DNA of 64,000 nucleotides, taken from contig JAHJIY010000007.1 of NCBI GenBank assembly GCA_018823175.1, positions 32,725 to 96,724 of the forward strand. The letters run 5' to 3'. The notes under the pieces were generated by a model, which saw only the letters and a program-made list of their open reading frames with translations, had not been told where the DNA came from and searched no databases. Shown in pieces: positions 21,944 to 32,621 of this stretch. Within the stretch, counting starts at the first letter, position 1; every line of letters begins with the position of its first letter. Position numbers and translations under genes: made by a program. The DNA comes from Pseudomonadota bacterium (lineage in GTDB: Bacteria; Desulfobacterota; Desulfobulbia; Desulfobulbales; JAHJIY01).

Positions 21944-24061
21944 ATGGCTACTAAGAGTAGAACGGTCCTTATTGCATTGAATGCATTAATGGCGCTTTCT
22001 TTAACGGCATGCGGCGGTGGAGGTGGCGGCGGTAGTGCTGCCACCAACGACACGAACACAGGCACTACACTTTCAACATTGGCAGGAGATATTACGACAG
22101 ACACTACTCTCACTGCCGATACAGTATGGGAGCTTGATGGCCTGGTTGCGGTCAAAGGCGCGACCTTAACCATTGAACCAGGCACCACCATCATCGGCAA
22201 AAGCGGCACCGGCGCCAACACCAGTTACCTGGTGATCGACAAGGACGCCGACATCATAGCCGAAGGCACCGCAGCCGAACCGATCATCTTTACCTCTAAA
22301 ACTGCCTACGATGGCGGCGCCGAGGCCCCCGGCCAGTGGGGCGGTCTGACCATCATCGGCAATGCCGCCGATGTCGGCTCCGCCACACCCCAGGTTGAGC
22401 CCTATGAAGTAGACACCCAGTTTGTTGCCGGCACCACTGATGCGGCCGACAGCTCCGGTATTCTCAGATATGTCGAGATCCTTAACTCCGGGATCACCAT
22501 GGAGCAGGATAAGGAGATCAATGGCCTCTCCATGGTTGGCGTCGGCAGCGGCACCATCGTCGATCACGTAACGGTCAAAAGAAGCGACGACGACTGTATC
22601 GAGATCTGGGGCGGCACCGTCAATGTTTCTAACGCCACGGTCGAATACTGTACCGATGACCAGTTCGATATCGACGACGGCTACTCCGGCACCGTCACCA
22701 ACCTGACGATCAACCAGCATACCGACGGCAACGCCGGTATCGAGATGTCCGGCTCAACCGCCGCAACCTTCATCGGCCTGAACCTTACCCAGAATTACTC
22801 GGATAAGGAAGGTGCCATCTACTTCAAGAAGGACGGTATCGGTGGTCATTTTGAGAACTGCCAGATCATCGACAACGTCGATGACGGCCTGACCATCTAT
22901 TCGACCGGAAATGCCGATGAGGCCAATATCTCGTTTACCGACGTCACCTTATCCAGTCCCACTATTTCAACAAACTTCGTTGACGATCCCAATGGCGGCA
23001 GCGCCGCTGAGATCGAAGCAGCTTTCGATGCAGGTTTAGGAAATTCAGAAGCCTTGAGCGGGGCAGCTCTCCAAGTTTCAACCCTGGCAGGAGATATTAC
23101 GACAGACACTACCCTCACTGCCGATACAGTTTGGGAGCTTGACGGTCTGGTTGCGGTCAAAGGCGCGACCTTAACCATTGAACCAGGCACCACCATCATC
23201 GGCAAAAGCGGCACCGGCGCCAACACCAGTTACCTGGTGATCGACAAGGACGCCGACATCATAGCCGAAGGCACCGTAGCCGAACCGATCATCTTTACCT
23301 CTAAAACTGCCTACGATGGGGGCGCCGAGGCCCCCGGCCAGTGGGGTGGTCTGACCATCATCGGCAATGCCGCCGATGTCGGTTCCGCCACACCCCAGGT
23401 TGAGCCCTATGAAGTAGACACCCAGTTTGTTGCCGGCTCCACTGATGCGGCCGACAGCTCCGGTATTCTCAGATATGTCGAGATCCTTAACTCCGGGATC
23501 ACCATGGAGCAGGATAAGGAGATCAACGGTCTCTCTATGGTTGGCGTCGGCAGCGGCACTATCGTCGACCACGTAACGGTCAAAAGAAGCGATGACGACT
23601 GTATCGAGATCTGGGGCGGCACCGTCAATGTTTCTTATGCCACGGTCGAGTACTGCACCGATGACCAGTTCGATATCGACGACGGCTACTCCGGCACCGT
23701 CACCAACCTGACGATCAACCAGCATACCGACGGCAACGCCGGTATCGAGATGTCCGGCTCAACCGCCGCAACCTTCATCGGCCTGACCCTTACCCAGAAT
23801 TACTCGGATAAGGAAGGAGCCATCTACTTCAAGAAGGACGGTATTGGGGGTCATTTTGAGAATTGCCGGATCATCGACAACGTCGATGACGGTCAGACCA
23901 TCTATTCGACCGGTAATGCCGATGAAGCCAGGATCTCTTTTGCCAATGTGACCATTACCAGCCCGGATCCTTCGACGAATTTCGTTGACGACCCCAATGG
24001 CGGTACCGCCGCCGAGATCGAAACGGTATTCGATGCCGGAACCGGGAACAGCGAAAATTAG
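21944..24061 (+). CDS. Large lipoprotein made of two near-identical 335-aa modules (beta-helix-like, function unknown)
   Basis: RBS AGGAGA 7 nt before ATG 21944; lipobox LSLTAC followed by a Gly7 linker. Each module starts STLAGDITTDTTLTADTVWELDGLVAVKGATLTIEPGTTIIGK…PIIFTS, a pattern reminiscent of right-handed beta-helix proteins. Confidence 0.8.
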   Translation: MATKSRTVLIALNALMALSLTACGGGGGGGSAATNDTNTGTTLSTLAGDITTDTTLTADTVWELDGLVAVKGATLTIEPGTTIIGKSGTGANTSYLVIDKDADIIAEGTAAEPIIFTSKTAYDGGAEAPGQWGGLTIIGNAADVGSATPQVEPYEVDTQFVAGTTDAADSSGILRYVEILNSGITMEQDKEINGLSMVGVGSGTIVDHVTVKRSDDDCIEIWGGTVNVSNATVEYCTDDQFDIDDGYSGTVTNLTINQHTDGNAGIEMSGSTAATFIGLNLTQNYSDKEGAIYFKKDGIGGHFENCQIIDNVDDGLTIYSTGNADEANISFTDVTLSSPTISTNFVDDPNGGSAAEIEAAFDAGLGNSEALSGAALQVSTLAGDITTDTTLTADTVWELDGLVAVKGATLTIEPGTTIIGKSGTGANTSYLVIDKDADIIAEGTVAEPIIFTSKTAYDGGAEAPGQWGGLTIIGNAADVGSATPQVEPYEVDTQFVAGSTDAADSSGILRYVEILNSGITMEQDKEINGLSMVGVGSGTIVDHVTVKRSDDDCIEIWGGTVNVSYATVEYCTDDQFDIDDGYSGTVTNLTINQHTDGNAGIEMSGSTAATFIGLTLTQNYSDKEGAIYFKKDGIGGHFENCRIIDNVDDGQTIYSTGNADEARISFANVTITSPDPSTNFVDDPNGGTAAEIETVFDAGTGNSEN
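22070..24058 (+). repeat. In-frame tandem duplication, period 1005 bp (2 copies) inside the lipoprotein gene
   Basis: GGCAGGAGATATTACGACAGACACT occurs at 22081 and 23086, an offset of exactly 1005 bp. The copies are nearly identical over the first ~800 bp and more diverged in the last ~150 bp. Confidence 0.9.
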
Positions 24062-24113
24062 TGCTGTAAATCGCCAAGCCGTAAACAGACCAGTAATAAA
24101 TATCCAAACAGCT

Positions 24114-32300: not shown

Positions 32301-32621
32301 TCGCCGATCGTGGTCAACCTTACCTTGGGTTTTGATCGTAGAGACAGAAGCATAACCCTTTCCTACAACAAGATGGGAGAAAGGATCAGGAAAGTCGGTA
32401 TGATTGATGACGGTGACTCCTACCCGGACCAATACGAGGCCCCACCCGCAATCCTTGACTTTGTCTGGATTGAAAAGTTCGGCCACGGACTGAGTCTAAA
32501 GGGCAAGATCGGAAATATTCTGCGTGATGACACGGTCTGGACCCAGGGTAACAGGGTCACCACAAGCTATAAGGATCCGATAAAATTCAGCCTGGAAATC
32601 TCCTTTTCTGCCGGACTTTAG
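29385..32621 (+). CDS. TonB-dependent outer-membrane receptor with two N-terminal carboxypeptidase-regulatory-like domains (Oar-like)
   Basis: Signal peptide. Two beta-sandwich-like modules ([19 protein letters not shown]…; [26 protein letters not shown]…[12 protein letters not shown]). Plug region [38 protein letters not shown], then a long barrel. The start is uncertain (ATG 29364, 29385, 29394 or 29400). Confidence 0.8.
   Translation: [1078 protein letters not shown]

Follow-up and report, generated by a model that had tools for sequence, protein, structure and literature searches.

A two-unit beta-helix lipoprotein, a TonB-dependent receptor and a TonB2-type motor behind Pho-type promoters: a probable phosphate-starvation acquisition system of the outer membrane

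Growth in many sediments, vents and soils is phosphorus-limited, and the passage of phosphorus compounds through the outer membrane is usually attributed to porins. Lipoprotein-receptor pairs of the ElpS/FI type, found in at least five phyla, are uncharacterised in function, and the two family members studied so far rank, each in its host, with the proteins that phosphate starvation induces most strongly. In Caulobacter the lipoprotein ElpS (CC0170) is made under phosphate starvation and is encoded beside the receptor CC0171, just upstream of type II secretion genes, and the same layout occurs in Sphingomonas alaskensis and others (PMC2996285). Flavobacterium johnsoniae FI (Fjoh_3856), a pectate-lyase/polygalacturonase-like lipoprotein homologous to ElpS, is encoded downstream of the transporter Fjoh_3857; FI is one of the FI/FII/FIII lipoproteins, and its locus (Pus3) shows extreme induction by phosphate depletion, and the PusCD pairs are also induced by phosphate starvation (PMC8115612). 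As late as September 2026 a preprint described the function of the Fjoh_3856/3857 locus as difficult to predict (10.64898/2026.09.03.749221). A second group of relevant systems is found in Vibrio, where six-gene TonB2 systems energise siderophore uptake, and where TonB3, which has its own outer-membrane receptor in the operon, is reported neither to transport iron compounds nor to be iron-regulated (PMC6957404). The locus considered here is an eight-gene cassette at 21944-32621 of a 64,000-nucleotide stretch, called the window below, taken from contig JAHJIY010000007.1 (positions 32,725 to 96,724, forward strand) of assembly GCA_018823175.1, a Pseudomonadota bacterium placed by GTDB in the Desulfobulbales. 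It encodes a large lipoprotein, a TonB2-type motor and a TonB-dependent receptor.

The cassette is probably a phosphate-starvation (Pho-regulon) acquisition system of the outer membrane. Phosphorus acquisition is proposed because phoBR, phoU-pstCAB and pstS genes lie in the same window, because their promoters share a motif with that of the cassette, and because relatives of the cassette are linked to pst genes; all three had been overlooked in a preliminary description of this DNA. What is new is the combination of an ElpS/FI-type pair with a TonB2-type motor and Pho-type promoters, in Desulfobacterales and Campylobacterota.

The eight open reading frames (ORFs) are co-directional on the + strand, and the coordinates and domains given for them in the preliminary description agree with the ORF list and with scans by hidden Markov models, in which every domain assignment was upheld. 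The first gene encodes the lipoprotein (21944-24061, +; 705 aa), with lipobox L-T-A-C, Cys23 and a match to Pfam Beta_helix (E 1e-14). It is followed by a TtpB-like DUF3450 protein (24183-25004, +; 273 aa, with a signal peptide; PF11932 E 5e-26), a TtpC-like long MotA/TolQ/ExbB protein (25001-26335, +; 444 aa; PF01618 E 5e-29 at residues 310-428), ExbB (26332-26952, +; 206 aa; PF01618 E 1e-21) and ExbD (26949-27353, +; 134 aa; PF02472 E 3e-27). TonB (27316 or 27358 to 28002, +; PF03544 TonB_C E 1e-16) probably begins at 27358, after GGAG, rather than at the first in-frame start codon. Likewise the TtpD-like TPR protein (28006 or 28114 to 29397, +), which matches several TPR families of Pfam (best E 6e-14), probably starts at 28114 (MKTVII...), which would give about 427 aa with a signal peptide, and not at the first in-frame start. 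The receptor (29364/29385-32621, +; about 1075-1085 aa) matches CarboxypepD_reg with E 5e-12 and Plug with E 5e-7. The 4-nucleotide ATGA overlaps at 25001/25004, 26332/26335 and 26949/26952 are exact, and the further overlap claimed for the TPR and receptor genes (about 29385/29397) is real or not depending on the ATG chosen.

The pho and pst genes of the window, with which the cassette is proposed to be co-regulated, are found 8-20 kb upstream of it. The regulators are phoR (1837-3660, - strand; HAMP-PAS-HisKA-HATPase) and phoB (3664-4359, - strand; REC with Trans_reg_C). The transporter genes are phoU (4592-5248; PhoU E 1e-44), pstC (5270-6658) and pstA (6747-8018), whose Pfam matches are DUF3708 and DUF3333 with BPD_transp_1, pstB (8107-8931; ABC_tran) and a pstS-like gene (12446-13510; PBP_like_2 E 2.5e-47). 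Two signalling genes, for a PAS-GAF-PAS histidine kinase (9008-11026) and a REC-DUF4388 protein (10956-12257), stand between pstB and the pstS-like gene, an unusual content for a pst locus.

PHO boxes are defined by two tandem 11-nucleotide direct repeat units (PMC4415409). A Pho-box-like operator precedes the lipoprotein gene at 21803-21829 (+), with direct repeats TTAAC, TTAAT and ATAAC placed 11 bp apart and 115-140 nucleotides before the ATG, and the spacing is that of the pst promoters. The phoU-pstCAB promoter box (4444-4481, +) has four units, CATAAC, ATTAAT, CTTAAC and CTTAAT, and the pstS promoter box (12328-12354, +) has three 11-bp-spaced units. The pattern TAAY-N7-TAAY-N7-TAAY has 4 matches against 0.03 expected in both strands of the 64-kb window, a uniqueness that is partly circular, the pattern having been derived from these same three promoters; its absence from the rest of the 128 kb of sequence is nonetheless informative. 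All four matches lie at the phoU-pstCAB, pstS and lipoprotein promoters and are oriented as the genes downstream of them. Possible arrays spotted by eye in three of the other Desulfobacterales loci (L001, L003 and L004) are not relied on. A sigma-54 promoter before the lipoprotein gene was considered and rejected for its wrong spacing.

An analogous array is found in Campylobacterota. The PhosR box of C. jejuni, from the work of Wosten in 2006, is reportedly GTNAC-N6-GTNAC-like. Searched as such, the C. jejuni pattern fitted poorly, and the looser GTNAC-N6-GTNAC form was tested against background. Of 25 loci, about 20 have arrays of this form, in most cases at -60 to -93 relative to the start of the lipoprotein gene, and their density before the lipoprotein gene is 7.8 per kb versus 0.47 per kb in whole loci. 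In 25 of 33 loci ttpB is preceded by a second GTNAC array, of at least 3 units, at -60 to -116 relative to its start (background 0.36 per kb per strand).

Linkage to phosphate genes is also seen in the relatives. When the ORFs flanking related loci were clustered, an OmpR/PhoB-type response regulator was adjacent in 34 loci, and PstB, PstS and PstA/C were found as well; the majority of Campylobacterota loci have such a regulator next to the cassette. In five gammaproteobacterial loci recovered by a targeted search the order is receptor-pstS-lipoprotein-pstC-pstA-pstB, so that the lipoprotein gene is inside a phosphate transporter operon. The arrangement varies elsewhere. For example, phoU and pstB lie directly 3' of the receptor gene in locus L001, pstB-phoU-phoB-phoR lies upstream of the cassette in L044, and phoBR is directly 5' of the receptor gene in two Bacteroidota loci; L067 and L075 are among the loci with pstB, phoU or phoBR beside the cassette.

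The breadth of the family was examined by a scan of one genome per species, which gave 77 related loci, and by phmmer comparison of the eight window proteins with the ORFs of 78 related loci. The full order lipoprotein-TtpB-TtpC-ExbB-ExbD-TonB-TtpD-receptor is kept in Desulfobacterales genome bins, where the lipoprotein is 78-80% identical, and also in most loci of Sulfurimonas, Sulfurovum, Sulfuricurvum and Arcobacter. Cultured carriers of the whole set include Sulfurimonas marina (FJR03_09695), S. aquatica (GJV85_11520), S. sediminis (FJR45_09200) and S. lithotrophica (FJR48_10555). Among Gammaproteobacteria, Ketobacter, Oleiphilus and others have the lipoprotein gene after those of the motor and receptor, in Pseudoalteromonas the order is motor-lipoprotein-receptor, and a Myxococcota-like contig has ExbB-ExbD-ExbD-receptor-lipoprotein. 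Bacteroidota loci have the receptor and then the lipoprotein only (L038, L041, L067, L069 and L074-L076), with the motor absent from the locus. The preliminary description had likened lipoprotein and receptor to a bipartite pair, and this is supported, as the two genes stand side by side, or with no more than pstS between them, in Bacteroidota, Alpha- and Gammaproteobacteria and Myxococcota. Because the motor is absent or differently placed where the pair persists, what is invariant, judged by gene order, is the receptor-lipoprotein pair, to which some lineages have added the TonB2-type motor.

In Alphaproteobacteria the pair has another companion. A tblastn search of plasmids and chromids with one lipoprotein unit found, in Sphingomonas parapaucimobilis (L079) and Indioceanicola profundi (L082), a protein of the lipoprotein family followed by a receptor and then gspN-D-E-F. 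Over the conserved core, the Sphingomonas protein and the window unit share 37% identity (E 3e-27), and the Sphingomonas receptor matches the window receptor with E 1e-36. The same pair thus occurs with two alternative companions, type II secretion genes in Alphaproteobacteria versus the TonB2-type motor in other lineages. Two further occurrences are curious. A complete bacterial cassette, TonB-dependent receptor included, is found on contig JAPUUO010000042.1 (L012), binned as 'Candidatus Bathyarchaeota archaeon'; the cassette most resembles the Campylobacterota versions, and the contig is therefore very probably mis-binned. A family member is also encoded on the Marinobacter salarius conjugative plasmid pHL2708Z5 (L081, 10268-13149), where the two short genes for carboxypeptidase-like regulatory domains before it look like remnants of a broken receptor gene, with insertion sequences nearby.

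The lipoprotein, for which the preliminary description could name no family, is a right-handed beta-helix protein. A signal peptide with the lipobox (Cys23) is followed by a Gly-rich linker and two tandem beta-helix units, unit 1 at 22070-23074 and unit 2 at 23075-24058, each of which matches Pfam Beta_helix; homologues carry PF28492 Beta_helix_4. This internal tandem duplication of 1005 nucleotides had been missed. The units, of 335 aa each, are identical at 309 of 328 aa, and their codon differences comprise 39 synonymous and 19 non-synonymous changes. The duplication is real, because in the one metagenome holding the sequence the repeat unitigs are about twice as deep as the flanks and the junction of units 1 and 2 is bridged by a single-copy unitig. 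Tandem units within one protein are generally close to one another (median 84% alike, often 95-100%, among homologues P0001-P0120), compared with 60-80% between an orthologue and the window unit, a pattern suggesting either that gene conversion or unequal recombination keeps homogenising the units or that fresh duplications have occurred repeatedly. The family is large: clustered at 50% identity, it has 5,718 representatives that match with E <=1e-3, and its proteins have 1-5 units each. The lipid-attachment signal is a general feature: in an alignment of the family the Cys is nearly invariant, and lipoboxes are found in most related loci.

AlphaFold models the whole lipoprotein as a right-handed beta-helix with a pLDDT (predicted local distance difference test) of 90, and the single unit likewise with a pLDDT of 88.7 and a predicted template modelling score (pTM) of 0.90. 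Foldseek searches with the two-unit and one-unit models returned beta-helix proteins only, with a best E of 3e-4 and template modelling (TM) scores of at most 0.43; the nearest structures were polygalacturonases, pectate and alginate lyases, and phage tailspike depolymerases. Transfer of a function from these matches was dropped, all being generic beta-helix enzymes and tailspikes. A sequence search of solved structures gave no relative of the lipoprotein and nothing useful for the receptor. Alignments show an acidic ladder that is invariant at about 33% identity (E-x-N-G, D-D-x-x-E-x-x-G-G, D-D-x-F-D-x-D and G-x-E) and that looks like a ligand- or metal-binding groove.

In the receptor a signal peptide is followed by a first, weakly matching beta-sandwich domain and then by CarboxypepD_reg, plug and barrel. 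Two N-terminal carboxypeptidase-regulatory-like domains had been claimed; one is significant (E 5e-12), and the first is weak (E 1.5e-3, below the cut-off). The barrel matches NCBIfam TIGR01782 (TonB-Xanth-Caul) with E 2e-47, below the cut-off of that model. For the motor genes, the reading of the central six as TtpB, TtpC, ExbB, ExbD, TonB and TtpD, with the order and domains of Vibrio TonB2/TonB3 (PMC6957404), is supported. In the TtpC-like protein the periplasmic N-terminal half is coiled-coil and PF01618 is confined to the C-terminal third. By gene content and order the motor belongs with the Vibrio TonB2/TonB3 systems.

The proposal that the eight genes form a single operon is questionable. 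Co-directional, overlapping genes favour it. Against it are a hairpin after the lipoprotein gene and, in relatives, a second box before ttpB. The 121-nucleotide gap between lipoprotein gene and ttpB folds at -35.4 kcal/mol (z -4.2) and includes a 16-bp stem-loop (24110-24146, +) without a U tract, possibly an attenuator or an mRNA-stabilising hairpin. With so strong a hairpin in the gap, a single eight-gene transcript is not assured. A hairpin stands at the same position in nearly all related loci, with T runs after it in L001, L003 and L004; across Desulfobacterales and Campylobacterota (L001-L068) its position is conserved and its sequence is not. Together with the second array of Campylobacterota, the hairpin suggests that the lipoprotein gene is expressed differently from the motor and receptor genes. 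The gene arrangement is best read as two units under common regulation, one being the lipoprotein gene, with high expression, and the other running from ttpB through the receptor gene, with read-through past the hairpin possible in the window.

Taken as a phosphate-starvation system, the cassette may work as follows. Under low phosphate PhoR-PhoB would switch on expression by means of the 11-bp-periodic Pho boxes. The lipid-anchored, probably surface-exposed two-unit beta-helix protein would capture, and possibly cleave, a phosphorus-containing ligand; the invariant Asp/Glu groove of each unit is like those by which pectate-lyase-like proteins bind Ca2+. The ligand would then be passed to the partner TonB-dependent receptor, which the TtpB-TtpC-ExbB-ExbD-TonB-TtpD motor, driven by the proton-motive force, would open for import, and PstS-PstCAB would take phosphate onward from the periplasm. 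Read in this way a "hypothetical lipoprotein" becomes a testable hypothesis of energised outer-membrane phosphorus uptake, and a possible purpose is suggested for non-iron TonB3-type systems.

Several observations weigh against this proposal. The cassette contains no phosphatase gene, and it is chiefly for enzymes acting on glycans that the beta-helix fold is known. The box pattern is partly circular, as noted above, and a strict three-repeat scan of the other Desulfobacterales loci gave few matches. In Campylobacterota the adjacent regulator could belong to a dedicated two-component system instead of being a Pho regulator. The sequencing runs that hold the sequence are of DNA metagenomes only, with no RNA runs among them. 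Caulobacter cc0171 is expressed in rich and poor media, unlike elpS (PMC2996285). Finally, the putative membership of the window lipoprotein in the ElpS/FI group is assigned from positional orthology and shared features; a homologue search from a proteobacterial family member, aimed at ElpS, returned Myxococcota and metagenome proteins.

The substrate is not deducible from the sequence, as the preliminary description had said. The phosphatase-free cassette and the adjacent pstS of Gammaproteobacteria fit inorganic phosphate, polyphosphate or mineral-bound phosphate as cargo, and the beta-helix fold is compatible, by analogy, with a phosphorylated polymer, for instance teichoic acid or a different phospho-glycan. 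A more specific proposal, which can be put forward only tentatively, is that the pair is a TonB-powered route for inorganic phosphorus: orthophosphate, pyrophosphate, polyphosphate, or phosphate from Ca/Fe minerals. The acidic, Ca2+-loaded groove would then catch phosphate at the surface and feed periplasmic PstS directly. This is suggested because the cassette is without a phosphatase and because the gammaproteobacterial lipoprotein gene lies between pstS and pstCAB. If true, this would be the first case of TonB-dependent uptake of inorganic phosphate.

Three readings without phosphate rank lower than the phosphate-starvation reading. In the first, the lipoprotein would bind glycans or act at the surface as a polysaccharide lyase or hydrolase, and oligosaccharides would enter through the receptor in the manner of SusC. 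The nearest structures listed above are of such enzymes, the acidic Asp/Glu ladder resembles Ca2+-dependent lyase sites, and the barrel matches the TonB-Xanth-Caul subfamily. The structural matches are, however, weak and generic, and the conserved neighbours include no carbohydrate-active enzyme, sugar transporter or sugar regulator; the linkage is to pst and pho genes instead. Many hosts, moreover, are labelled Sulfurimonas or Sulfurovum, which are sulfur-oxidising autotrophs. Glycan utilisation as such is therefore improbable, and a phosphorylated glycan, e.g., teichoic acid, would reconcile it with phosphate acquisition.

Export is also unlikely. The preliminary description had called the receptor Oar-like, and CarboxypepD_reg, plug and a large barrel are indeed present, so that receptor and motor might move a protein outward, for example the lipoprotein to the surface, as Oar does with PopC in Myxococcus. 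In Alphaproteobacteria the pair goes with a type II secretion system, by which ElpS is released (PMC2996285), and the motor of the window sits where those secretion genes stand, which would imply a need for some surface-delivery step. The analogy to export is weakened in that the same architecture occurs in uptake receptors, the N-terminal domain pf13715 being found in the phosphate-induced uptake receptors Fjoh_3857 and PusC (PMC8115612). The likeness to Oar is one of domain architecture, and the place of the lipoprotein gene in pstS-X-pstCAB gives an operon logic of import.

Least probable of the three is uptake of iron, siderophores or another metal, as in Vibrio TonB2, perhaps tied to the cytochrome genes. 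TonB2 systems with these six genes power siderophore uptake (PMC6957404), the gene of an octaheme cytochrome is found 3 kb upstream, and a siderophore cluster lies near the Pseudoalteromonas locus; yet no Fur box was found in the window with up to 3 mismatches allowed, cytochrome and REC genes stand beside the cassette in 0 of 78 related loci, the conserved neighbours include no siderophore, heme or metal ATP-binding cassette (ABC) transporter genes, and Vibrio TonB3, with its own receptor, reportedly does not transport iron compounds (PMC6957404). The hint of a redox- or metal-linked function drawn earlier from the upstream genes accordingly falls away. A role in elemental-sulfur handling, as might be imagined for Sulfurovum, was rejected, the family being present also in Bacteroidota labelled soil isolates and in Ketobacter and Oleiphilus bins. 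A Sulfurovum transcriptome paper mentions TonB systems in general terms only (PMC10045233).

The upstream genes themselves are as had been described: REC-HisKA and REC-HATPase genes and, on the - strand, a cytochrome with 8 CXXCH motifs. The latter, an octaheme c-type cytochrome (17347-18591, -), matches the MtrC/MtrF domain II/IV family. Just 3' of the receptor gene is a gene for a 491-aa protein (33021-34496) with an N-terminal CheW-like domain, a long low-complexity middle containing one transmembrane-like segment, and a C-terminal LysM domain, an odd architecture that is not conserved in the related loci. Neither this CheW-LysM gene nor a CooC-like gene has a counterpart beside the cassette in any related locus.

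Among described systems, the Vibrio TonB2/TonB3 sets have six genes identical in order and domains to the window motor, with the DUF3450 protein encoded first in the window as in TonB2 (PMC6957404). TtpD is also of similar length, 425 aa for V. vulnificus TtpD2 (PMC6957404) versus about 427 aa in the window, and the long MotA/ExbB protein, typically of about 450 aa in such systems, has 444 aa in the window. The window cassette differs in having a beta-helix lipoprotein in addition to this set, in the position of the receptor gene, which is at the 5' end for Vibrio TonB3 and at the 3' end in the window, and in its promoter signals, which are of Pho type in the window and of Fur type for Vibrio TonB2. 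The SusCD/PusCD systems share the pairing of a TonB-dependent transporter with a surface lipoprotein. Their partner is a SusD-like helical lid, whereas that of the window is a beta-helix protein, and the Pfam scan of the lipoprotein gave no match to SusD families, Beta_helix being the sole match. Myxococcus xanthus Oar is similar in its N-terminal CarboxypepD_reg followed by plug and barrel; Oar exports, and the architecture that the window receptor shares with it is common to many importers.

The closest likenesses are to the phosphate-starvation pairs. In F. johnsoniae a pectate-lyase-like lipoprotein is encoded directly 3' of a CarbopepD_reg and Plug transporter, and the Bacteroidota loci found here have the same order. 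Fjoh_3856 is listed at 45 kDa, its locus is without a dedicated motor, and its phylum and habitat are unlike those of the window. ElpS, at about 50 kDa, differs from the two tandem units of the window lipoprotein, and it is paired with type II secretion genes where the window cassette has the six-gene TonB2-type motor and no secretion genes. In both ElpS-CC0171 and the window a lipoprotein gene stands beside a gene for a TonB-dependent receptor, and in Sphingomonas and Indioceanicola the position of elpS, that of the protein encoded before a receptor and type II secretion genes, is held by homologues of the window lipoprotein.

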